Source: an uncultured Verrucomicrobiae bacterium
Lineage (GTDB): Bacteria > Verrucomicrobiota > Verrucomicrobiia > Chthoniobacterales > UBA10450
NCBI GenBank assembly: GCA_963840135.1
Contig: CAWIXX010000017.1
Coordinates: forward strand, 263,691 to 327,690
DNA length: 64,000 nucleotides
Direction: 5' to 3'
Shown here: piece after piece, positions 4,307-49,715 of the stretch
Layout: each line of letters begins with the position of its first letter
Numbering within the stretch: the stretch's first letter is position 1
Made by a program: the position numbers and the translations under genes
Notes under the pieces: model-generated
Databases searched by the model: none
The model's input: the letters and a program-made list of their open reading frames with translations, nothing else
Told to the model about the DNA's origin: nothing

Positions 4307-5606
4307 ATGGCCATTGAAGTTAAAATTCCTTCCGTAGGTGAATCGATCACCAGCGGCGTTGTCTCCGCTTGGCACAAGAAATCCGGCGAGTTTGTAAACG
4401 AAGGCGAAGCCCTCTTCACCCTCGAGACTGACAAGGTTTCCACCGAGATCGTCGCAGAAAAAGCAGGCGTACTCGAAACGAAGGTTCCGGAGGGGCAGGA
4501 GGTGAAGATTGGTGAGGTAGTCGCCATAATTGACGATTCAAAACGGCCGGCGACGGAACAAAAAGAAGAGAAACCCAAAAAGAAAGAGGCTGAAGAAAAG
4601 GACAAGAAACCCGAGCCGGAGAAAAAGGCCGCAGCAGAAAAAGCTCCTGTAGCCGCGGGCGCTGACCGCGGCAGGCCCGCAGCCAACGGCAGCGACTACA
4701 ACAACGCTTTCGCCTGCTGTTCGCCGAATTGTCGAAGAAGAGAAGCTTCAGCCGGAAAAAATTCGCGGCAGTGGCGAAGGAGGCCGCCTAACAAAAGGAG
4801 ACGTCCTGGCCGCGGCACAACAGCGCGGCAAGACGGACTTGTCCGCCGTAACCTCGGCGAAGGCGGAAGAAAAAATTGAATCTCGCGAAGCTGAACCATC
4901 CGGTGACGGGCGCTTCACACGCAAAAAGATGTCGCCGCTGCGCCGCAAGATCGCGCAGCAACTTGTGATGGCGCAGCATACCGCAGCGATCCTGACGACT
5001 TTCAATGAATGCGACATGAGCGCCGTCCAGGAATTGCGCCGGAGCAAACAAGATGAGTTTACGAAAAAGAACGGCGTCAAACTCGGCTTGATGTCGTTCT
5101 TTGTTAAGGCTTGCGTCGAAGCGCTTAAAGCCGTCCCGGTGGTCAATGGCCACATCGAGGATGAGGATTTCATTCAAAACAATTTCTATGACATTGGCGT
5201 GGCGGTCGGCACGGAGCGCGGACTCGTGGTTCCGGTCGTGCGCGATGCAGACAAGAAAAGTTTTGCGGGTTTGGAGCGCAACATCGCCGATTACGCCAGC
5301 AGGGCGCGCGACGGAAAACTAAAAATCGAAGATTTACAGGGCGGCACGTTTACCATCACAAACGGCGGAGTGTACGGGTCGTTGTTCGCGACGCCGATTC
5401 TAAATCCGCCACAAAGCGGCATCCTGGGCATGCACAAGATCATGCCGCGACCAGTTGCGGTGGATGGAAAAGTGGAAGTTCGCCCAATGATGTATCTTGC
5501 CCTCAGCTACGATCACCGCGCGATCGACGGAAAAGAAGCCGTCACTTTTCTGATCAAAGTGAAGGACTGCATCGAAGATCCAAAAAAGCTACCGCTGGAT
5601 TTTTAG
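4307..5606 (+). CDS. sucB: Dihydrolipoyllysine-residue succinyltransferase (E2o); reading frame broken in this assembly at about 4676-4680
   Basis: The lipoyl domain ([10 protein letters not shown]) and the Ala/Pro/Lys linker are in the frame of 4307. The E3-binding domain ([33 protein letters not shown]) and catalytic domain ([13 protein letters not shown]) are in the frame of 4839, which is open from 4653. The break coincides with a 28-nt palindromic repeat. Confidence 0.85.
4649..4676 (+). repeat. Family C REP-like singlet inside sucB
   Basis: GTAGCCGCGGGCGCTGACCGCGGCAGGC with a 7-bp stem GCCGCGG/CCGCGGC. With its 2-nt CT prefix it is a 30-nt string identical to the pxpB copy. Confidence 0.85.
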
Positions 5607-8636: not shown

Positions 8637-9206
8637 GTGGAAAGCACCGCTGCTATTCTGTTACGCAAACGAAAGTTCAGCGATACCAGCCTGATCGTCT
8701 CGTGGTGCACGGAGTCGTTCGGTTGCATCCAAACAATCGCCAGGGGCGCGCGCCGCCCTAAAAGTCCGTTCGCGGGAAAGCTGGATTTGTTTTTCGAAGC
8801 TGAAATTTCCATAGTGCGGAGCAGGAAGTCGGATCTGCATACGCTCACTGAGGTTATGCTAGAAAATCCGTTTGCCGGGATTCGCAACAATTATCTGCGT
8901 ACGCAGACTGCGGCCTATTTTGTCGAGCTAATTGAGATTTGCACGGAGCGAGATCATAGGGAGCCGGAATTGTTCGCGCTGCTGCATCGGGCTTTCGGTT
9001 ACCTCAATGCAAACGATCCGACGGCGCGAGCGGTTTCGCATTTCGAGACAGAGCTCGCGCGGATTGCCGGCGTGCACGACGAGAAAAAATTGAAAGCCGA
9101 CCCGGCATTTGCGCTTGGAAATTTATTCGGCCGACTGCCGCTTTCCCGTACGCCGCTGTTGAAAACGCTGGCGACGGAGGCGAAAAGCCGGAACAGTTCC
9201 AAATGA
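8637..9206 (+). CDS. recO: DNA repair protein RecO (short form)
   Basis: 189 aa with a GTG start. RecO-like OB-fold N-terminus (ILLRKRKFSDTSLIVSWCTESFGCIQTIARGARRPKSPFAGKLDLF). Confidence 0.7.
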   Translation: MESTAAILLRKRKFSDTSLIVSWCTESFGCIQTIARGARRPKSPFAGKLDLFFEAEISIVRSRKSDLHTLTEVMLENPFAGIRNNYLRTQTAAYFVELIEICTERDHREPELFALLHRAFGYLNANDPTARAVSHFETELARIAGVHDEKKLKADPAFALGNLFGRLPLSRTPLLKTLATEAKSRNSSK

Positions 9207-9898: not shown

Positions 9899-10624
9899 AT
9901 GATGGAAATCATTCCCCTCGGAGATTCCGCTCTGATCGTTCGAATGCGCGAGCGATTCGACGATGCGCCTGAGCAGACGTTGGACACAGTCCTTCGCGCA
10001 TTTCAGCAGCTTCAAAACGCTGCCATCCCTGGTGTAATTGAGCTCGCGCCAGCTTACACAAGCGTCACAGTTTTCTTCGATCCGATTTCAGTCGCCAAAG
10101 GCGCTGAAACACCGGACAAGGTGTTCGATTGGCTGGTGGCGCGCATTCGGACCGCTGTAGCCGCGGGCGCTGACCGCGGCAGGCACCGGACAGCGAGACA
10201 ACGCCGTGTACGCTTGGTCGAAATTCCGGTCTGCTATGATCCGGAATTCGCGCTCGATATCGATGATGTTGCGCGACGCGCGGCTATCTCTCCAAGCGAA
10301 GTCATCCGTCTTCACAGCACCGCTGAGTATCGGGTAGCCTGCATCGGATTTGTTCCCGGATTTCCATTTCTGGCTGGTCTCCCGAAGGAACTGGCGACAC
10401 CGCGACGGGACGTACCGCGAAAACAAATTCCACCCGGTTCTGTCGGGATTGGTGGCGCCCAAACGGGAATTTATCCGCTACGTTCCCCCGGCGGCTGGAA
10501 TCTCATCGGTCGCACACCATTGCGCTTGTTCGATCCCCAGAAAAATCCACCCGCACTTTTGCGCGCCGGCGAACGTGTGCGCTTCCGCAAAATCTCGCGC
10601 GATGAATTTGAATCCTTGAAATGA
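9899..10624 (+). CDS. pxpB: 5-oxoprolinase subunit PxpB (KipI / allophanate hydrolase subunit 1 family)
   Basis: 241 aa. PxpB-like motifs (VEIPVCYD, VACIGFVPGFPFL, GGAQTGIYP). Followed by pxpC and pxpA. Confidence 0.8.
   Translation: MMEIIPLGDSALIVRMRERFDDAPEQTLDTVLRAFQQLQNAAIPGVIELAPAYTSVTVFFDPISVAKGAETPDKVFDWLVARIRTAVAAGADRGRHRTARQRRVRLVEIPVCYDPEFALDIDDVARRAAISPSEVIRLHSTAEYRVACIGFVPGFPFLAGLPKELATPRRDVPRKQIPPGSVGIGGAQTGIYPLRSPGGWNLIGRTPLRLFDPQKNPPALLRAGERVRFRKISRDEFESLK
10157..10184 (+). repeat. Family C REP-like singlet inside pxpB
   Basis: Same 28 nt as at 4649. Translated in frame as VAAGADRGR. Confidence 0.85.
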
Positions 10625-22463: not shown

Positions 22464-22586
22464 GTAGGGCGTCTGTGTCAGACGCCGACCAAGGCGCTTC
22501 ACAGAATGGAGCCGCGGAGGTGCGAGCGACATAGACGGGCAGCATATCTGGGCTAGAGAGCGGGAGCGAACGAGTCAACGCCCTAC
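22464..22586. repeat. Family B element (GTAGGGCG ... CGCCCTAC termini, about 125 nt)
   Basis: GTAGGGCGTCTGTGTCAGACGCC hairpin head. Internal ACAGAATGGAGCCG and GAGCGAACGAGTCAA blocks are shared with the copy at 48944. Lies in the sigma/fibre divergent intergenic region. Confidence 0.8.
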
Positions 22587-22684: not shown

Positions 22685-24010
22685 ATGAAAAATCGAAACA
22701 TTATACTCACAACGATACTCTTCGCCCTTGGTTCCTTTGCGCTTCCGCAGGGGACGCAAGCGGTCGAACCAGCGGCGCCGGATACGGCCTTAGCCGGAGG
22801 CAACACTGCGGATGGGCAAAGCGCCCTTGGGAGCCTAACCACCGGTCAATTCAATTCGGCATTTGGCTTTTTGTCGCTTCTAAGCAACGCCGGCGCCAAC
22901 TTCAACACGGGTGTTGGTGCCGGTGCGCTCCTTAGCAACACTGCAGACTCAAATACGGCCGTTGGTGCTGGAACGCTTTTTAGCAATACCACCGGGGGCG
23001 ACAACACGGCCAACGGAGCGTTCGCCCTCTTTAGCAACGTTAGCGGCATCTTCAACACGGCCACCGGTTTTCAGGCGCTCCTGAACAGTACCGGCGACAG
23101 AAACACGGCCAATGGTGCTGATGCGCTCCTTTCCAACACGAGCGGCGGTGAGAACACAGCCGACGGTAATAATGCGCTCCGTAACAACACTATCGCCAAT
23201 TTCAACACGGCGGCCGGCGCGTCGGCCCTGGTTACCAACACCACTGGCCATGACAACACGGCCGTTGGTACAAACGCACTCTTCAGCAATACGACGGCCA
23301 ACTTCAACACGGGCGTTGGATCGGCCGCGCTTGGCGGAAGTACTGGCGACAGCAACACAGCTATGGGCTTTGGCGCGCTACAGGGTGACACCACCGGCAG
23401 CAACAATGTCGCACTGGGCGCTGGAGCTGGTTCGGCTCTGACTACTGGCGATAATAACATCTGTATCGGCCACAACGTTACTGGTGTGGCAGGGGACGCC
23501 GACACCATCCGGATCGGGAACGTGAACACCACCACCACCTTTGTCCGCGGGATCAGCGGAACAGCCGTTACCGGCACACCAGTTGTGGTAAACGGCAATG
23601 GTCAACTTGGCGTCGCACCCTCTTCGAAGCGTTTCAAGGACGAGATCAAGCCAATGGAAAAAGCGAGCGAAGTGCTCCTGGCACTAAAGCCGGTTACGTT
23701 TCGTTACAAGAAGGAGATTGATCCGGCAGGCACATCGCAGTTCGGGCTTGTGGCTGAAGAGGTAGAAAAGGTGAATCGGGACCTGGTGGTACACGACAAG
23801 AAAGGAAAACCGTACAGCGTGCGTTACGAGCAGGTGAACGCGATGTTGCTTAACGAGTTCCTCAAAGAACACAACACGGTGCAAGAGTTGAGGAAGGAAC
23901 TCGCAGCGCTCGCGGCAACTGTGAAAGACCAGGGAGCGCAAATCGAGAAAGTGAGCGCTCGGCTCGAGGTCAGTAAGCCGGCGGCAAAAGTGGTCCTCAA
24001 TAACCCGTAA
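22685..24010 (+). CDS. Secreted repeat-fibre protein with C-terminal S74-type intramolecular chaperone domain (paralogue 1)
   Basis: 441 aa. Signal peptide, then about a dozen 16-17-residue NTAxGxxALxSNTxGxx repeats. TIRIGN...TFVRGISG neck. SSKRFKDEIKPM at 23621-23656, then VTFRYK...GLVAEEVEKV...YEQVNAMLLNEFLKEH and a heptad-rich tail. Confidence 0.8.
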   Translation: MKNRNIILTTILFALGSFALPQGTQAVEPAAPDTALAGGNTADGQSALGSLTTGQFNSAFGFLSLLSNAGANFNTGVGAGALLSNTADSNTAVGAGTLFSNTTGGDNTANGAFALFSNVSGIFNTATGFQALLNSTGDRNTANGADALLSNTSGGENTADGNNALRNNTIANFNTAAGASALVTNTTGHDNTAVGTNALFSNTTANFNTGVGSAALGGSTGDSNTAMGFGALQGDTTGSNNVALGAGAGSALTTGDNNICIGHNVTGVAGDADTIRIGNVNTTTTFVRGISGTAVTGTPVVVNGNGQLGVAPSSKRFKDEIKPMEKASEVLLALKPVTFRYKKEIDPAGTSQFGLVAEEVEKVNRDLVVHDKKGKPYSVRYEQVNAMLLNEFLKEHNTVQELRKELAALAATVKDQGAQIEKVSARLEVSKPAAKVVLNNP

Positions 24011-24090
24011 AACTATTCCAGGATGGTAGCTTGTGACCGGAGTTTCCGACCTCGGCTACAGCTGCAATATGGAAGCTTGTAATTTGTGAC

Positions 24091-24113
24091 GGCGGGCGTG
24101 CCGCCCCCTTTTT
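24091..24113 (+). terminator. Putative intrinsic terminator after fibre paralogue 1
   Basis: GGCGG-gcgtg-CCGCC followed by CCCTTTTT. Confidence 0.55.
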
Positions 24114-24123
24114 AAATGAAACT

Positions 24124-24146
24124 GCAGCCGCCACGGCTGCCACTAC
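24124..24146 (-). repeat. GTAG-headed REP-like singlet (minus orientation)
   Basis: The plus strand reads GCAGCCGCCACGGCTGCCACTAC. Stem GCAGCC/GGCTGC, with the complement of GTAG at 24143-24146. Confidence 0.5.
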
Positions 24147-24258
24147 AGAAATAACGCCCCGCAAATCCAAAAGGTCAGTGATCAGATCGAACACGAATTC
24201 GCAATAACCAAAATCACAGAAGGCCAAAACACAAAAGCTAATGAAAGGAAATCGAACT

Positions 24259-25598
24259 ATGAAAAATCGAAACAACAGAATAACAGCAATACTCTTGGCG
24301 CTTGGCTTCCTTGCGGTCGCCTCCTTTGCGCTTCCGCAGAGGACGGAGGCGGTAAGTCCGGCGCCAGACGGAGGCTATCCCGGGGGCAACACGGCAGAGG
24401 GGCAAAATGCCCTGTTGAGCCTTACCAGCGGCGTTTACAATACAGGAATTGGTATATTCTCGCTACTAAGCCTTACGGACGGCAGTTTCAACACGGGTGT
24501 CGGCGCTGGAGCACTGTTTACCAATACCGCCAGCGAAAATACAGCTACCGGCGCCGGGGCACTTTTTAGCAATACCACCGGGGGGACAACACGGCCAACG
24601 GAGCATTTGCCCTGTTCAGCAACACCATCGGTCAGAACAACACGGCCAATGGAGTGTCTGCGCTCCAGAGCAACACAGAAGGCAGTGATAATACAGCCAT
24701 TGGTCGTCAAGCGCTCTTCAGCAACACCAGCGGCGGCAGCAACACGGCGATCGGTGATTCCGCACTCTTCAACAACACCACCGGTAGCGTCAACACGGCT
24801 GTCGGTCTGCAAGCGCTCGAAAACAACACCACCGGCAATCGCAACACGGCCACTGGCTTAAGCGCGCTTAGTGGCAATGCGACCGGCAACGATAACACTG
24901 CCACTGGTCACGAAGCGCTCCAGTTCAACCTCAGCAGCGGCAACACGGCCATGGGTAGCGGTTCGCTTTCTGAAAACGCGACTGGCAGCAATAACACGGC
25001 CTTGGGTTTCAATGCTGGCGCCAACGTGGACGGCGATAATAATATCGATATTGGGAGCGGCGTTCAGGGTGTAGCTGGCGAGAGCAACACGATCCGAATC
25101 GGCGATACAGATATTACTGACACCTTTATCAGAGGAATCAGTGGAGCAACGGCTTCTGGTGGTGCTGCAGTTTTTGTGAATGGAAACGGCAAGCTGGGCA
25201 CGATGACCTCATCAGCGCGATTCAAAAATGAGATCAAGCCGATGGGCAACGCCAGCGAAGTTATTCTGACTCTGAGGCCGGTAAGCTTTCGCTACAAGAA
25301 AGAGATTGATCCGCAAAGCATCCCGCAATTTGGCCTGGTGGCCGAGGACGTAGAAAAAGTGAATCCCGATCTGGTCACTCGCGATCGGGAGGGCAAGCCG
25401 CAGACGGTTCGTTACGAGCAGATCAACGCAATGCTGCTCAACGAGTTTCTCAAAGAACACAGTAAAGTTGGGCAACTTGAAGCTGCGCTCGACGCGGTCA
25501 ACAAACGTCTAAATGAGCAGGAGACAAGAATTCAGAAAGTCAGTGCAAAACTTGAGGTGAACAAACCGGCGACAACCATGGCTCTCAACAGTCAGTAA
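24259..25598 (+). CDS. Secreted repeat-fibre protein with S74-type chaperone domain (paralogue 2); frameshifted at a G6 run, 24580-24585
   Basis: Same architecture as paralogue 1. The 5' part is in the frame of 24241. The remainder is in the frame of 24654 and is open back to GAC at 24585. Paralogue 1 has GGGGGCGAC where this copy has GGGGGGAC. SSARFKNEIKPM at 25209. Confidence 0.75.
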
Positions 25599-25627
25599 AA
25601 AACAAAACAATCCAAGGAAATTAAATT

Positions 25628-26917
25628 ATGACACATCGTAACACACTATTCACAACCATACTCTTAGCCTTTTGGTTCTTGGTGTTTAGTTGCCTTGTAT
25701 TCCCACAGAAGACGCAAGCGGTCAGTCCTGCGCCGGACGGGGGCTATCCCGGGGGCAACACGGCAGAGGGAACGAACGCCCTTTTGGGCCTGACCGCTGG
25801 CACGTACAATACGGCAGTAGGTTTCTTGTCGCTCGCGAGCAACACGGAAGGCCAATTCAATACCGCCCTGGGCGCGGGGGCACTTCTTGCCAACGTGGGA
25901 GATCCAGGTTCAGGCGCAGGAGTCGGAAATACGGCCACTGGTGCGGGAGCGCTTTTAAGCAACACCACCGGCGAGAGCAATACTGCAAATGGCGCGTTCG
26001 CGCTCTTTAGCAATAGTACCGGTGCGGTCAATACAGCCACCGGTGCTGACGCCCTATTGAACAACACCACCGGCTTCGCCAATACTGCTAATGGTGTTGG
26101 GGCTCTTTTCAGCAACAGCATCGGCAACAACAACACAGCCACGGGGTTTAGCGCCCTCTCCGCCAATATGAATGGCGACGGCAACACGGCGATCGGTCGG
26201 TCTGCGCTCACTATCACCACTGGCAGCGGCAACACGGCTTTGGGCGCTAACGCCGGCAACGCTCTCACTGCGGGTAATTTTAATATCGATATCGGCGTCG
26301 ATGTTATCGGTGTGGCAGGAGAGAGCAATACCATCCGGATCGGTGCCAACTTGGACGACACACCGGGAGCCTCAGCGTGCCATATCGGCGGGATCTATAA
26401 CCAGTTGGTTGATCCCGGCACCGCAAGTTCTATGGCAATCGATGCCACTGGAAAGTTAGGTACGGCGCTCTCGTCGCGGCGCTTCAAGCATGACATTAAA
26501 CCAATGGACAAGGCGAGCGAAGCGATTCTGGCGCTCAAGCCTGTGACCTTCCATTACAAGAGCGACGCTAAAAACACGCCGTGCTTTGGTTTAATCGCCG
26601 AAGAAGTGGCCGGGGTAAATCCCGATCTCGTCGTCCGCAACAAGAACGGCGAAATCTGGAGCGTTCGCTATGATCAGATCAACGCGATGTTGCTCAACGA
26701 GTTCCTCAAAGAACACCGGAAACTGCAGGAACAGCAAACGACGATCGGGCAACTGAAATCCAATGCTGCAAAGCAGGAAGCCACGATCAGTGAGCTCAAG
26801 AGCGATCTGCAAATTGTTATTGCTCGCCTCAAGGACCAGGATTCAAAAATCCAGAGCGTGAGCGCGGAAGTTGAAATGAACAACCGCTCATCACACGTGG
26901 TCGCTACCAATCCGTAA
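25628..26917 (+). CDS. Secreted repeat-fibre protein with S74-type chaperone domain (paralogue 3)
   Basis: 429 aa with the same architecture. SSRRFKHDIKPM at 26471. Only 29 nt downstream of paralogue 2. Confidence 0.8.
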   Translation: MTHRNTLFTTILLAFWFLVFSCLVFPQKTQAVSPAPDGGYPGGNTAEGTNALLGLTAGTYNTAVGFLSLASNTEGQFNTALGAGALLANVGDPGSGAGVGNTATGAGALLSNTTGESNTANGAFALFSNSTGAVNTATGADALLNNTTGFANTANGVGALFSNSIGNNNTATGFSALSANMNGDGNTAIGRSALTITTGSGNTALGANAGNALTAGNFNIDIGVDVIGVAGESNTIRIGANLDDTPGASACHIGGIYNQLVDPGTASSMAIDATGKLGTALSSRRFKHDIKPMDKASEAILALKPVTFHYKSDAKNTPCFGLIAEEVAGVNPDLVVRNKNGEIWSVRYDQINAMLLNEFLKEHRKLQEQQTTIGQLKSNAAKQEATISELKSDLQIVIARLKDQDSKIQSVSAEVEMNNRSSHVVATNP

Positions 26918-36895: not shown

Positions 36896-38452
36896 ATGTT
36901 CGCATATTTGAGGTATCTCCCGAAAACTTTCTCCTCAGCATGGCGTTTCTACCGCGTCCATGGCACCACGCTTGTGATTGCAATATGGATATTCGCAGTG
37001 GCGGTGCGGCTAATTTTGATCGATCAGCCCTACGTCGATGACTGGAGCTGGAGGCAGAGCGATGTCGCGGCGATTGCGCGCAACTTTTTCGAAGGGGCTT
37101 TTCGTTTCGGATACCCTCAGATCGACTGGGCTGCCAACTCAGCCGGCTACGTGGGAACAGAGTTTCCCATTCTGCCATTCCTTGCGGCGATCTGTTACAA
37201 ATTCGCCGGCATTCACGAATGGATGGGGCGCAGCCAGTCCGTGATTTTCTTCGCTATTTCGCTCCCATTCTTCTTTTTGCTGGTGCGCGAGATCTTCGAC
37301 AGCACAACTGCGATTTGGGCCACGTTTTTCTACGCTTTTGCGCCGCTGAACATCTTTGCCGGCCGCTCCTTCATGCCGGATGTGCCATCGCTTGGCCTGG
37401 GAATCATCGGATTGTATTTTTTTCTGCGTTGGCTTCGCGATCCAAAGCCAGCGTCGTTTTATCTGTCTGCGATTGCGATTTCCTTGTCGATCCTGATCAA
37501 GGCCACGAGCCTCGTCATCGCGGCGCCGCTTTTGTATTTGGCTGTAGCCGAGGGTGCCGACCACGGCCCTGATCAACCTCGTCACGTCCGGGGCAGCCGC
37601 AGTCAACACCAGCGGCTACATCTGCTGGCTTTTGCTGCAATTGCGCTCCTACCCTCGGTCGCATGGTATTGGCACGCGCATCAAATCGCCGAGAGATATT
37701 ATCCCCATCATTTCTTTGGCGCCGGTGGAGTTCGGCTGGAAAGTTTTTCGTGGTACTGGGACATCGCGCAACAGACTGCGACGTCGAGCCTCACACCTCT
37801 TCTGGCGATTATGGCGCTCATCGGTCTGTTCGTCGCGCCGCGCGGAAAATATGGCTGCCTTTTTGATTGGTGGCTGGTTGCCATGGTTCTGTTCGTTGCG
37901 GCCGTTGGCTACGGCAATCGCCATCCATGGTACCAGTTGCCTTTCGTGCCAATTGCTGCCGCATTTGCCGGCGCTGCGTGCGCTTTTTTTGGATCGAAAA
38001 TTTCTTCGCGCGTTGCAGCCGTGACCTCGTCAATCTTGCTTACAGGTTCGTTTGCAATTCTGGCCTTCTTTTACGTGCGACCGCTTTACGAATCATCAGC
38101 CGCACAACTTCGCGATGCTGGTCTGGAATTAAACAAGCTTACGGCGAGCGATGCATTGATTGTCGCCGTGGACGGTGGCAATCCAACCATATTCTATTAT
38201 GCGAAGCGCAAAGGCTGGCATTTTCTCGAGCAAAGGGGGATTTACGACGGCAATCCTAAGAATAGCCAGCAAGCGATTGCCGATCTTGAGAGACTGCGTC
38301 GCCAGGGCGCAACGCATTTTGTTTTTACCACGCCCAGGTTTTGGTGGTTGGAATCATATCCCGAGCTAACACAGCATCTCAACGAAACCGCAACGCCGCT
38401 TGAGACGACTCCAGAATTCAAAATCTATAAACTCACCTCTGGTCCAAAGTGA
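36896..38452 (+). CDS. Polytopic membrane glycosyltransferase (ArnT/PMT-like, GT39/GT83-type)
   Basis: About 518 aa from ATG 36896 with more than 10 TM helices. First-loop acidic motif (IDQPYVDDWSWRQSD) and a soluble C-terminal domain. The ORF-track start at 36821 lies in a hairpin repeat. Confidence 0.6.
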   Translation: MFAYLRYLPKTFSSAWRFYRVHGTTLVIAIWIFAVAVRLILIDQPYVDDWSWRQSDVAAIARNFFEGAFRFGYPQIDWAANSAGYVGTEFPILPFLAAICYKFAGIHEWMGRSQSVIFFAISLPFFFLLVREIFDSTTAIWATFFYAFAPLNIFAGRSFMPDVPSLGLGIIGLYFFLRWLRDPKPASFYLSAIAISLSILIKATSLVIAAPLLYLAVAEGADHGPDQPRHVRGSRSQHQRLHLLAFAAIALLPSVAWYWHAHQIAERYYPHHFFGAGGVRLESFSWYWDIAQQTATSSLTPLLAIMALIGLFVAPRGKYGCLFDWWLVAMVLFVAAVGYGNRHPWYQLPFVPIAAAFAGAACAFFGSKISSRVAAVTSSILLTGSFAILAFFYVRPLYESSAAQLRDAGLELNKLTASDALIVAVDGGNPTIFYYAKRKGWHFLEQRGIYDGNPKNSQQAIADLERLRRQGATHFVFTTPRFWWLESYPELTQHLNETATPLETTPEFKIYKLTSGPK

Positions 38453-43254: not shown

Positions 43255-43298
43255 TCCCAGGGAGTGGCGGTTCTCCTTGAGCGTAGAGAGGCGCCGCT

Positions 43299-43375
43299 GT
43301 AGCCACGGCCCTGTGGGCCGTCTTCTTGGTGTGAAAAGCACCGCACGGGTCGACCGGCCATAGGCCGGTGGCTAC
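43299..43375. repeat. Family C-related REPIN-like inverted doublet
   Basis: GTAGCCACGGCCCTGTGGGCC ... GGCCATAGGCCGGTGGCTAC, between the convergent GH15 and CNNM genes. Confidence 0.75.
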
Positions 43376-43392
43376 AACACTTTTGAAATTGT

Positions 43393-45748: not shown

Positions 45749-46219
45749 ATGAGCAAAGGCGAGAGGATTTCGCGGTTTGTGGCCGAAGTGGTTGTTGAAG
45801 ATGTCGATCTGAGCCGGAGGGACATCGTGAAACATCCATTTTATCGCGCGTTTTTCCATTGCTGGAATGAAAAACGTTATTACGAGGCGCATGATGTGCT
45901 CGAGCAGCTTTGGCTCAAGACCAAATCAGCCGATGCAGACTATTTCAAAGGATTGATTCAGGCGGCTGGGGCCTTTGTCCACCTTCAGAAGCGATTTGAG
46001 CACCCACTGCACGCGAAACATAGCAAGCGCTTGTCTCCCGCAGTTCGCCTGTTCCGGCTCGCTGAGAGGAACCTGTCCCGCTTCTCTCCACGACATCATG
46101 GTTTGGATGTGGCTGCGTTGTGCCGGCTGTTGCGCACATGCGCTGATCAGATCGTTGCATCCGACTACAAGACCAATCCCTGGTCGCCGGAAACCGCACC
46201 CAAACTGGAGTTGCTGTAG
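45749..46219 (+). CDS. DUF309 domain protein
   Basis: FFHCWNEKRYYEAHDVLEQLWL...YFKGLIQAAGAFVHLQK. ATG 45749 is preferred over the ORF-track start at 45626. The stop TAG lies in a GTAG repeat head. Confidence 0.65.
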   Translation: MSKGERISRFVAEVVVEDVDLSRRDIVKHPFYRAFFHCWNEKRYYEAHDVLEQLWLKTKSADADYFKGLIQAAGAFVHLQKRFEHPLHAKHSKRLSPAVRLFRLAERNLSRFSPRHHGLDVAALCRLLRTCADQIVASDYKTNPWSPETAPKLELL

Positions 46220-46295
46220 CCACGGGCCTGTGGCCAGTCTTGAGCAATCTGCTTAGTGTTGAATGGAGATAAACGGCCCAGAGGGCCATGGCTAC
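46216..46295. repeat. Family C-related REPIN-like inverted doublet
   Basis: GTAGCCACGGGCCTGTGGCC ... GGCCCAGAGGGCCATGGCTAC. Confidence 0.75.
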
Positions 46296-46333
46296 AGCTA
46301 TGACTGGCCGACTTGGCCTGGTGCGGCGCGCTC

Positions 46334-46721: not shown

Positions 46722-48947
46722 ATGACAAGTCCCTTCCGCTTTGGATTTCTCGCGTTAACGTGGTTGGTGACATCGAGCGACCCTTTTGCTGAGGCCAAGC
46801 CTGCGCAGCCTGAACACACCAACCGTCTTGCGCAGGAGAAGTCGCCGTATCTTCTTCAGCACGCGCATAATCCCGTCGATTGGTATCCATGGGGGGAAGA
46901 AGCGTTCGCGAGGGCGCGCCGGGAAAACAAACCGATCTTTCTTTCGGTTGGTTATTCCACCTGTCACTGGTGCCATGTCATGGCGCACGAATCGTTCGAA
47001 AACGAAGACGTGGCCGCAGTCATGAATCGCGAATTTGTGAACATCAAAGTGGACCGGGAAGAGCGCCCCGATGTTGATCGCGTTTACATGACGTTTGTGC
47101 AAGCGACTACGGGCGGTGGTGGCTGGCCGATGAGTGTTTGGTTGACGCCTGGCCTGAAGCCATTTGTTGGCGGAACCTATTTTCCGTCGGAGGAACGATT
47201 CGGTCAGCCGGCTTTCAAGACCGTGCTCGAACGAATCGCGGCGGCTTGGAAGGAAAATCACGACAAAATTGTCGAGCAAGGCGGCAAGATCGTTGAGGCG
47301 CTGCGTGAATCTCAATCGGCGACAACTGCCGCAGGAAAGATCGATGCAACGATCTTAGATGCTGCTTACCGGCAACTTGACCGTAGTTACGACCCGAAGG
47401 AAGGCGGTTTTGGAAATGCCCCTAAGTTTCCGCGACCGGCGACGCTCAACTTCCTGACGCGATTCTACGCGCGCGCTCCCAAGGGTGAATCCGGCAAACA
47501 CGCGCTGGAGATGGCTTTGTTCACGCTGCGCAAAATGGCCGCAGGCGGAATGCACGATCATATCGGCGGTGGGTTCCATCGTTACTCGGTCGATCGCTAC
47601 TGGCACGTGCCGCATTTCGAAAAGATGCTTTATGATCAGGCGCAACTTGCTGTCGCTTATCTCGATGCATTTCAGATTACGCGGGATTGGCAGTACGAAT
47701 CAGTGGCGCGCGACATTCTCGATTACGTCGGCCGTGACATGACTTCGAAGGAAGGTGGCTTCTTCTCCGCCGAAGACGCCGACAGTCCTGTAGCCGCGGG
47801 CGCCGACCGCGGCCATGCGGAGACCAAGGAAGGCGCATTCTACATCTGGACGAAGAAAGAAATCGATGATGCGCTGGGAGATATCGCCGAGATTTTCGCT
47901 TTTCATTACGGGGTGCAGCCCCATGGAAATGCGCCGGAAGGGAGCGATCCCCAGGATGAATTCCGTGGCGAAAATATTTTGATTGAACGCCATACGATTG
48001 CAGAGACCGCAAAGCACTTTGGGAAAACCGAGGGAGAAATTCGAAAACTCCTAGCGCAGTGTCGCGAGAAACTGTTTTCCATTCGTGCCAGACGGCCGCG
48101 CCCTCATCTCGACGACAAGATCATCGCCGCCTGGAACGGCCTGATGATTTCTGCTTATGCCCGCGGCGCGCAAGTACTCGACGAACCTCGTTACCTGGAA
48201 ATCGCAACGCGCGCAGCGAAATTCCTCAGGACAAATCTCTATGAAGAAAAGAGCAAATCGCTCTATCGCAACTATCGCGGCGGCCGCAGCGATATCGAGG
48301 GCTTCGCCGACGATTACGCATTCACGATTCAGGGTCTTCTCGATCTTTACGAAGCTTCGTTCGATGTCGAATGGCTGAAATTCGCGGTCGAATTGCAGGG
48401 GACGCAGGACCGCTTGTTTTTTGACGAGAAGAACGGCGGTTATTTCAGCACGAGCGGCGAAGATAAAAGCGTCTTTCTCCGAATGAAAGACGATAACGAC
48501 GGGGCAGAGCCTGCTGCAAGCTCGGTCGCGGCCCTGAATCTTTTCCGGCTGGCACAATTTCGCGATGACAAACAGAGGTCGGAGCGCGCGCGAAAAACGA
48601 TCGACGCATTTGCGACAACTCTTTCGCATTTCCCCAGCGCCATGCCGCAAATGCTGGTGGCGCTCGACGCCGCGTTAAGCAAACCGCGCCAGATCGTGAT
48701 CACCGGTAAAAAGGATGCTCCTGAAACCAAAGCGCTCCTTAGAGAAGTGAATAGGCATTTTCTGCCGAAAACCGTTCTGGTTCTCGCGGATGGCGCGGAA
48801 GACCAGAAATATCTTGGCGAGAAAAATGACGCGATTCGCGCGATGTCGCCGATCAATGGAAAATCGGCCGCTTACGTTTGCGAAAATTTTACCTGCAAAG
48901 CGCCGGTGACCGCTGCGGCGGAACTCGCCGAGTTGCTAAAGTTGTAG
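46722..48947 (+). CDS. Thioredoxin-domain protein of the DUF255/YyaL family (thioredoxin-like + six-hairpin glycosidase-like)
   Basis: [47 protein letters not shown] and [12 protein letters not shown]. Signal-like N-terminus. Alternative TTG start at 46713. Confidence 0.85.
47790..47813 (+). repeat. Family C REP-like singlet inside the DUF255 gene
   Basis: GTAGCCGCGGGCGCCGACCGCGGC, one mismatch to the other copies. Translated as VAAGADRG. Confidence 0.8.
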
Positions 48948-49075
48948 GGCGTCTGTGCCAGACGCCAGCCCGTGAAAGCGGCGTTTCACAGAATGGAGCC
49001 GGGGGGGAGCCGAGCGAGATGGACGGGCAGGTCCAGAGACCGAGGGAGCGGGAGCGAGCGAGTCAAACGCCCCAC
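48944..49075. repeat. Family B element
   Basis: GTAGGGCGTCTGTGCCAGACGCC ... GTCAAACGCCCCAC. Aligns along its length with 22464-22586. Confidence 0.8.
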
Positions 49076-49657: not shown

Positions 49658-49715
49658 GTAGGGCGTTTCTGTGAAACGCCATTTATGGATTTGGCGTCTG
49701 ACACAGACGCCCTAC
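49658..49715. repeat. Family B short REPIN-like doublet
   Basis: GTAGGGCGTTTCTGTGAAACGCC - 12 nt - GGCGTCTGACACAGACGCCCTAC, two inverted GTAG-headed hairpins. Confidence 0.8.

Follow-up and report, generated by a model that had tools for sequence, protein, structure and literature searches.

Has a mobile palindrome split a core gene of the tricarboxylic acid (TCA) cycle in an uncultured Verrucomicrobiae bacterium? The question is raised by sucB, the gene of the E2 subunit of 2-oxoglutarate dehydrogenase (E2o), in the 64,000-nucleotide stretch analysed here (the window; contig CAWIXX010000017.1 of assembly GCA_963840135.1, positions 263,691–327,690 of the forward strand); its coding sequence is spread over two frames, and the break lies at a GTAG-headed repeat of the repetitive extragenic palindrome (REP) type. 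An earlier inspection of the letters (the sequence-only reading) had offered two explanations: a REP-like element that split or inactivated sucB, with lipoyl carrier and catalytic core perhaps made separately, or a tolerated in-frame linker insertion accompanied by a 1-nt consensus error. The first was not supported, the same REP being present in the intact sucB of 27 related loci and in more than 100 related proteins; the second was supported, the surplus base being private to this assembly and one of at least six private +1 insertions. In all likelihood the break is one assembly-private surplus C, introduced as a consensus or sequencing insertion error, and the actual gene very probably encodes a normal E2o of 432 amino acids (aa). 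The gene and its repeat are composed as follows:

4307..4675, + strand: sucB (E2o) 5' part in the frame of ATG-4307, with lipoyl domain, Lys/Glu/Pro-rich linker and REP left arm.

4647..4672, + strand: REP left arm, CT + GTAG head + stem GCCGCGG/CCGCGGC + loop GCGCTGA, in frame as VAAGADRG.

4674..4699, + strand: degenerate inverted right arm of the sucB REP doublet, CTAC end at 4696-4699, placed by alignment to orthologue arms.

4676..4678, + strand: CCC run with one surplus C, the true frame break (+1 nt versus all relatives).

4677..5606, + strand: sucB 3' part in the shifted frame (Pfam E3_binding + 2-oxoacid_dh), with the remaining linker, E3-binding domain and catalytic acyltransferase domain.

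The arrangement in two frames, with the TAG at 4650-4652 (part of the GTAG head) closing the second frame upstream, had been described in the sequence-only reading and was confirmed by the frames and by Pfam. The open reading frame (ORF) 4307..4879 (codon starts = 2 mod 3) contains the lipoyl domain and the linker and runs on as nonsense past the break; the 5' part (Biotin_lipoyl, residues 4-75) is colinear with codons 1-123 of intact 432-aa orthologues. The downstream frame is open from 4653 to the stop codon at 5604-5606, and the 3' part shows 97-98% protein identity to intact relatives. The domain set of an E2o (SucB), Biotin_lipoyl, E3_binding and 2-oxoacid_dh, is thus distributed over the two frames (Pfam); an E1o-type gene is located upstream of sucB and lpdA downstream, in the same order as in the relatives L115-L117 (related loci are cited by such numbers throughout).

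The break was compared with close relatives, L118, L119 (97% identity), L115, L116 and L117; L115 is the metagenome-assembled genome (MAG) JAALOD01 of Candidatus (Ca.) Udaeobacter (PMC7343977). These read GGCAGGCCGCAGCC or GGCAGGCCCCAGCC at the break, against GGCAGGCCCGCAGCC in the window; in the DNA of 23 relatives GGCAGGCCGCAG or GGCAGGCCCCAG was found, against GGCAGGCCCGCAG in the window. The extra C, which lies in a CC run 4 nt beyond the left arm, is the sole indel over the entire sucB coding sequence versus the relatives, and 23 of the 23 related contigs covering the site are without it (CC, not CCC, at 4676-4678). By an exact 30-nt search the CCC allele gave no match in 241 million metagenome records; the CC allele matched 17 metagenome contigs in the same collection. 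Past the break the codon differences from relatives are mainly synonymous (synonymous:non-synonymous 17:6, 17:7, 53:7, 36:6), and neither decay nor a second disabling lesion was found in that part of sucB.

Both in silico repairs put forward in the sequence-only reading, removal of 4649-4676 and deletion of one C of the CCC run at 4676-4678, restored the frame, and the latter yielded exactly the 432-aa protein of the relatives. With the translation of the one-C-deleted gene as query, more than 100 protein relatives were retrieved at 89-98% identity, nearly all of exactly 432 aa; the linker stretch predicted by the one-C deletion was found exactly in 16 of the 25 sequences read, the other nine differing by single substitutions or by a nested insert (see below).

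Similar lesions were found in neighbouring genes. The indels were tallied site by site, since gap placement in BLAST varied between relatives; with sucB included, at least six window-private +1 insertions break conserved genes in the first 15 kb:

~7479: extra G in the MFS transporter gene, base absent in 9/9 relatives.

~9239: extra A in YceI, N-terminus, base absent in 8/8 relatives.

11633: extra G in pxpC, base absent in 4/4 relatives.

14101: extra T in the DUF3008 gene, versus L116.

14516: extra T in the bestrophin-like gene, versus L116.

In the MFS gene the MFS_3 profile is matched at 3-310 in one frame and at 324-399 in another (Pfam); the middle one of three tandem paralogues (24241-25598) is also split, near 24.6 kb. 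Six to seven broken conserved genes in 25 kb, all by +1 insertions, point to an error-prone consensus and not to biology. Reference MAGs of the group of L115 carry indel errors of their own: in L115 (JAALOD010000005.1; match to window 8729-8915) recO has five private 1-nt deletions, and lpdA contains a run of N.

Several points weigh against this explanation or the REP assignment that accompanies it. No frameshift was found in ~4.4 kb of coding sequence at 43.4-48.9 kb (three-way alignment, 42.8-50.1 kb); sucA and lpdA are intact; several of the private insertions lie outside homopolymers, which is atypical for some error models. The distant sucB orthologues described below were recovered via an exact REP match and are a biased sample for REP conservation; the link of the repeat to REP-associated tyrosine transposases (RAYTs) rests on related MAGs, no RAYT gene being present within the 64-kb window. 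An error and a true, very recent mutation in the sequenced population would look alike in the assembled sequence. The frameshift-free stretches show that the indel rate is uneven along the window, and a uniformly high error rate was rejected on account of the ~4.4 kb of coding sequence without a frameshift.

Of the other explanations, a real and very recent frameshift, with sucB as a fresh pseudogene or a segregating loss-of-function allele, survives best and is nevertheless unlikely. The extra C does stand in the given sequence, a MAG consensus can capture true variants, and replication slippage would be plausible at a short C run by a GC-rich hairpin; the allele, however, is absent from the 23 related contigs and from the 241 million metagenome records, and at least five neighbouring conserved genes carry a like private +1, a joint loss of E2o, PxpC, the MFS transporter, YceI and others in 10 kb being improbable. 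A second disabling mutation is lacking and the downstream codons are under purifying selection, so that the marks of a pseudogene (relaxed selection, further lesions, or a lesion shared by independent samples) are not seen. We infer an error, rather than a very recent mutation, as the source of the extra C. Locally, it may have arisen by mis-consensus at a polymorphic CCG/CCC codon by the GC-rich hairpin, both alleles occurring in relatives.

A functional split, in which a free lipoyl-domain protein (4307..4879) would cooperate with a separate catalytic core, is highly improbable. Both halves are open and the lipoyl domain is complete; the first start codon of the downstream frame, however, is TTG 4839, past the E3-binding domain (about 4701-4800), so that the core would lack that domain, and the upstream product would bear ~66 out-of-frame tail residues. 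The split arrangement occurs in none of the relatives, and unrelated genes are broken likewise in the same assembly.

Recovery of full-length E2o from the shifted gene by a programmed +1 ribosomal frameshift, or by slippage of transcription at the CCC run, with the REP hairpin as an aid, can practically be set aside. A hairpin is present just upstream and a short homopolymer at the shift site; such shifts, however, are conserved, and here 23 related contigs and more than 100 proteins are in frame, so that no shifted arrangement is conserved among the relatives. Moreover, the hairpin lies upstream, not downstream, of the shift site, its fold is no more stable than shuffles (z = -0.87, -1.18), and a slippery motif was not seen.

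That the break arose when a REP newly transposed into sucB, as suggested by the 100% identity of the sucB and pxpB copies over 30 nt and by the restoration of the frame on removing 28 nt, has next to no likelihood, and the presence of the element in intact orthologues refutes it: both copies stand in frame at the same positions in relatives down to 70% nt identity, the sucB element is a ~51-nt doublet and not a 28-nt unit, and a single C that is not part of the conserved arm accounts for the shift of frame.

The age of the insert was followed in these orthologues. The sequence-only reading had proposed to check whether the 27/28-nt block is absent from sucB of close relatives; it is present there, and in frame. 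In 27 of the 27 related loci examined by DNA, spanning 70-98% nt identity, the same REP was found at the same linker position of an intact, single-ORF sucB. The most distant of these came from the REP scan (L099, L069, L089, L019; 70-79% nt identity): L099, L069 and L089 contain a single intact sucB ORF of 417-438 aa, and that of L019 is open from its start to the locus end; in all four the left arm is followed, after 1-40 nt of spacer, by a perfect inverted right arm, and the whole is in frame and ends right before LSPAVRR. As the element is present in intact orthologues, it is much older than the break and is not its cause; the break falls at the repeat by coincidence, through a surplus of 1 nt that has nothing to do with the biology of the element.

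The REP motif was found in 0 of 29 more distant E2o representatives (42-67% identity), which marks it as an insert specific to the clade rather than a part of the ancestral linker; since the 50%-identity representatives collapsed the whole clade, the E2o proteins compared are all distant ones with an "empty site", and intermediate relatives are not among them. The copies in pxpB and in the YyaL-type gene (see below) also appear as insertions against solved homologues, which supports an insert and not ancestral sequence. The doublet would have entered the E2o gene in an ancestor of the lineage, in the Ala/Pro-rich linker that joins the lipoyl domain to the E3-binding domain; since the lone stop-free sense frame encodes a linker-like peptide, VAAGADRG ... 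PGSTPPATA, the insert would have been tolerated and afterwards inherited as ordinary coding sequence. Its origin is presumed to be RAYT-mediated and its presence neutral.

There is a small chance, to judge from the arms, that the doublet in the E2o linker has been maintained as a nucleic-acid hairpin and not merely as tolerated codons. The left arm is nearly invariant across sucB orthologues whose flanking linker DNA hardly aligns, and the right arm keeps a perfect 7-bp stem via three sequences (GCCGGAG/CTCCGGC, GCCAGCG/CGCTGGC, GCCGGGG/CCCCGGC). Possible causes are selection on mRNA or ssDNA structure between domain-coding segments, or a RAYT- or gene-conversion-driven renewal of intragenic REPs. 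Against such maintenance stand the choice of the distant orthologues by an exact left-arm match and the fact that arm swapping with other family members would give an equal pattern.

The repeat itself, GTAGCCGCGGGCGCTGACCGCGGCAGGC, has two exact copies in the window, 4649-4676 and 10157-10184 (chance expectation: 0 in 100 shuffles). Its recurrence in pxpB as a 28-nt GTAG-headed palindrome had been noticed before; the identity grows to 30 nt once the preceding CT is counted (4647-4676; 10155-10184). The hairpin consists of the GTAG at 4649-4652, a 7-bp stem formed by 4652-4658 and 4666-4672, and a loop of 7 nt. The folding energy as DNA is -11.1 kcal/mol, with no excess of stability over dinucleotide shuffles (z = -0.87 and -1.18 for the RNA and DNA folds), and the fold energy by itself is uninformative for this hairpin. 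The right arm (4674-4699), which is degenerate throughout the window's own clade, reads PQPTAATT in the repaired frame; its counterparts in the orthologues L099, L069, L019 and L089, to which it aligns, are perfect inverted arms (GCCGGAGTCAACGCCTCCGGCTAC and the like); a right arm of this type also adjoins the REP of L067, within a different gene. The sucB element is thus a doublet of ~51 nt, larger than the 28-nt unit.

The family was scanned in one genome per species with the 24-nt core GTAGCCGCGGGCGCYGACCGCGGC as query. The core was found at no fewer than 114 loci, nearly all of them in Verrucomicrobiota MAGs and many labelled Ca. Udaeobacter, a globally abundant soil genus, with several copies per MAG; together with the four copies in the window, the repeat is dispersed and multi-copy. 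The flank statistics refer to 121 copies with full flanks: position -1 to GTAG is T in 117 of them, position -2 is C in 73 and T in 42 (115/121 pyrimidine). An inverted partner arm (consensus GCCGnnGTCnnCGCCnnCGGCTAC) lies at most 150 nt away in 72 of the 121 copies, mostly at 0-35 nt; the partner-arm stems vary yet remain self-complementary. Inverted pairing of the kind known from REP doublets forming hairpins (REPINs) and from REP dimers is thereby present, the sucB orthologues and the GT39-like copy (see below) being doublets.

Y1_Tnp (RAYT) genes directly abutted by the REP were found in six loci of different MAGs (L072, L032, L046, L008, L057, L020). Three of the six proteins were compared with Pfam PF01797, where they reached 36-40 bits (cutoff 23); they carry the HUH motif DHVHFF. 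In L072, L032 and L057 the RAYT stop codon is the TAG of the GTAG head, and in L072 and L020 REP copies stand on both sides of the gene; such cognate RAYT genes were met in related MAGs only. Judged by its sequence, the repeat constitutes one arm, the left, of a REPIN-like doublet of GTAG-type REPs; the label "REP-like" of the sequence-only reading was right and is sharpened by the doublet and by the cognate RAYT genes in related genomes.

REP-flanked RAYT genes (L046, L072, L032, L057) seem to hold an inverted in-frame REP copy within the coding sequence; in L046 the exact core stands inside the RAYT ORF, and the L020 homologue is without that segment. Two candidates were rejected. The Y1_Tnp gene beside pxpA in L116 is flanked by another direct repeat of ~55 nt and is not a cognate RAYT; it encodes 177 aa and is inserted between pxpA and an amino-acid permease (L116, 8254-8870), its direct repeats each hold two small palindromes and constitute a different repeat family, and window position ~12489 is the empty site for this insertion. 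The supposed RAYT context in L087 was an intergenic region between paralogous genes, to which the recurrent flank tgaatgcgcttactaggtgtcat by the REP belongs.

Of the three sense frames of the REP one is stopped by the TAG of the head and a second by TGA in the T-variant loop; the sole open sense frame is GTA-GCC-GCG..., and the three antisense frames are all open (sequence and frame census). Among 126 copies in the census, 44 lie in an open VAAGADRG frame of at least 150 aa, many of these with 400-1100 aa; in 42 the longest open frame is antisense, and in 38 there is none. In the window 4/4 copies fall within long ORFs, all of them in the coding orientation and in one common frame. With these four and at least a third of the 126 sampled copies inside genes, the REP family is far from strictly extragenic; this does not exclude the repeat from the REPs, because intragenic GTAG REPs are a documented exception (PMC3733652). 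The common frame of the intragenic copies may be the residue of purifying selection on insertions. Besides that in sucB, the copies are:

10155..10184, + strand: identical REP copy in the pxpB interdomain linker, in frame as VAAGADRGR.

37542..37619, + strand: diverged REP doublet in a PMT_2/GT39-like membrane protein gene, arms read from the sequence.

47788..47813, + strand: REP copy with loop variant GCGCCGA in a DUF255/YyaL-type thioredoxin-domain gene, in frame as VAAGADRGH.

The in-frame translation of the pxpB copy agrees with the sequence-only reading; this REP is also present in L115 and L116 and, compared with PDB 2phc_B, lengthens the interdomain linker by an insertion of 8 residues. 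The copy at 47788 (83% identity) is conserved in the orthologues L015 and L093 and forms an 11-residue insertion relative to PDB 7tkv_A. The sites in question, the pxpB interdomain linker, the YyaL insertion and the sucB linker between the lipoyl domain and the peripheral subunit-binding domain, are permissive. The copy at 37542 (73% identity) reads VAEGADHGP, its left arm being at 37544-37567 and its inverted right arm at 37596-37619; the doublet 37544-37619 adds ~26 mostly polar or charged residues amid hydrophobic stretches of the PMT_2/GT39-like protein.

The linkers of sucB hold a second palindrome:

4842..4867, + strand: distinct hairpin TCCGCC...GGCGGA with a GTA(A/G), in the second sucB linker.

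Its sequence is TCCGCCGTA(A/G)CCTCGGCGAAGGCGGA. Of 23 relatives, 6 (L120 (471-500), L121, L122, L125, L128, L131) have a near-identical hairpin, 30 nt long and containing GTAG, nested within the loop of their first REP, where it sits between window positions 4662 and 4663 and yields VAAGALSAVASAKADDGGR. The hairpin at 4842-4867 has no other copy in the window, and among the loci only the nested copy of L120. It is probably another in-frame palindromic insert; it resembles a small mobile palindrome inserting in frame and may represent a repeat family.

GTAG-tagged REP families were defined by Di Nocera et al. in 2013 (BMC Genomics 14:522, PMC3733652) as short palindromes (20-40 bp, stem-loop) with a GTAG head, a description that applies to the sucB repeat. 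Intragenic GTAG REPs were reported there to be mostly dimers encoding 20-30 residues and to be most numerous in the verrucomicrobium Opitutus terrae; Additional file 3 of that work lists a dimer in Oter_4191, "2-oxoglutarate dehydrogenase, E2 subunit" (VAGVADPGPGSPSPA), and one in Oter_4192, "dihydrolipoamide acetyltransferase" (VAGVADPGQPGSTSPA) (PMC3733652). The two peptides are very close to VAAGADRG...PGSTPPATA of the window sucB. Common to the present family and those REPs are the GTAG head with a short perfect palindrome of 6-9 bp stem, the many closely spaced inverted dimers, and the short Ala/Gly/Pro-rich peptides encoded by intragenic copies. Unlike the O. terrae REPs, the present ones belong to a Ca. 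Udaeobacter-like Chthoniobacterales lineage and differ in the sequences of stem and loop. In O. terrae the E2o insert occupies residues 190-204 of 443, probably in a different linker and as an independent event; unlike it, the sucB insert is traceable across orthologues of 70-98% identity, some with the nested element. In-frame GTAG REP dimers in verrucomicrobial genes were thus already published in 2013, and the present case concerns a different lineage.

With REPIN-RAYT systems or REPtrons (Bertels and Rainey 2011, PMC3116915, PMC3337134; Corneloup et al. 2021, PMC8266576) the family shares an inverted REP pair with a short spacer and the location of the REP right beside a Y1 (HUH) transposase gene, seen here in related genomes. 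TnpA(REP) enzymes cut at a CT dinucleotide, the GTAG acting as a guide-like sequence (PMC8266576); a conserved pyrimidine-T 5' of GTAG is shared as well and would be consistent with such a cleavage site and such a role of the head. Unlike REPINs, which are described as extragenic, all four window copies and at least a third of 126 lie inside long ORFs, and the arms of the present doublets usually differ in stem sequence; the present RAYTs, unlike those of REPIN-RAYT systems, are flanked by direct-orientation copies, with none in the window.

The Rickettsia palindromic elements (RPEs) resemble the present element in behaviour only, as selfish palindromes found in frame in many unrelated functional genes, encoding a short peptide at permissive sites. 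RPE-4 and RPE-6 have been treated as intragenic CGTC REPs of R. conorii (PMC3733652). RPEs are CGTC-tagged or belong to the longer RPE-1 classes and occur in an obligate intracellular alphaproteobacterium; the present element, unlike them, is GTAG-tagged, has an arm of 24-26 nt, and occurs in free-living soil Verrucomicrobiota with cognate RAYTs. It is not a member of the RPEs.

For annotation, sucB is to be treated as an intact gene of a 432-aa E2o with a probable 1-nt assembly error; it is not usable here as evidence for a TCA-cycle gene split by a mobile element, and any "broken gene" in the window needs a check against reads or relatives first. The published case of in-frame GTAG REP dimers is extended to Ca. 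Udaeobacter. A single linker site can retain such an insert throughout a deep clade, and further examples of safe landing sites are the linkers between domains in E2o and PxpB and the surface of a YyaL-type protein, where the copy forms an insertion. Small additions are the differing yet paired right-arm stems between orthologues and the second hairpin nested in 6/23 relatives. The overall advance is incremental.

Further repeats were observed in the window. Other GTAG-headed palindromic families, GTAGGGCGTCTGTGYCAGACGCC and GTAGCCACGG(G/C)CCTGTGGCC, are mostly intergenic; GTAG-headed palindromes of other families stand at 22464-22486, 48944-48966 and 49658-49680 and at ~43285-43378 and ~46215-46300, and one sits right at the stop codon of the YyaL-type gene. 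A repeat of ~26-32 nt (GATTCCTCGACTTCGCCCGGAATGAC / TGTGAGATCCTTCACTTTGTTCAGGATGACAA) has seven copies (1379, 9870, 10735, 36028, 38476, 46603, 63492), is intergenic, just 5' of genes, and enters the predicted N-termini (e.g. of pxpC) if the first start codon is used. At 22685-26917 the three tandem paralogues mentioned above each have an N-terminus resembling a signal peptide, NTA.G-type repeats with a period of 51 nt and, at the C-terminus, a Peptidase_S74 domain (endosialidase chaperone); they look like a surface-fibre family.

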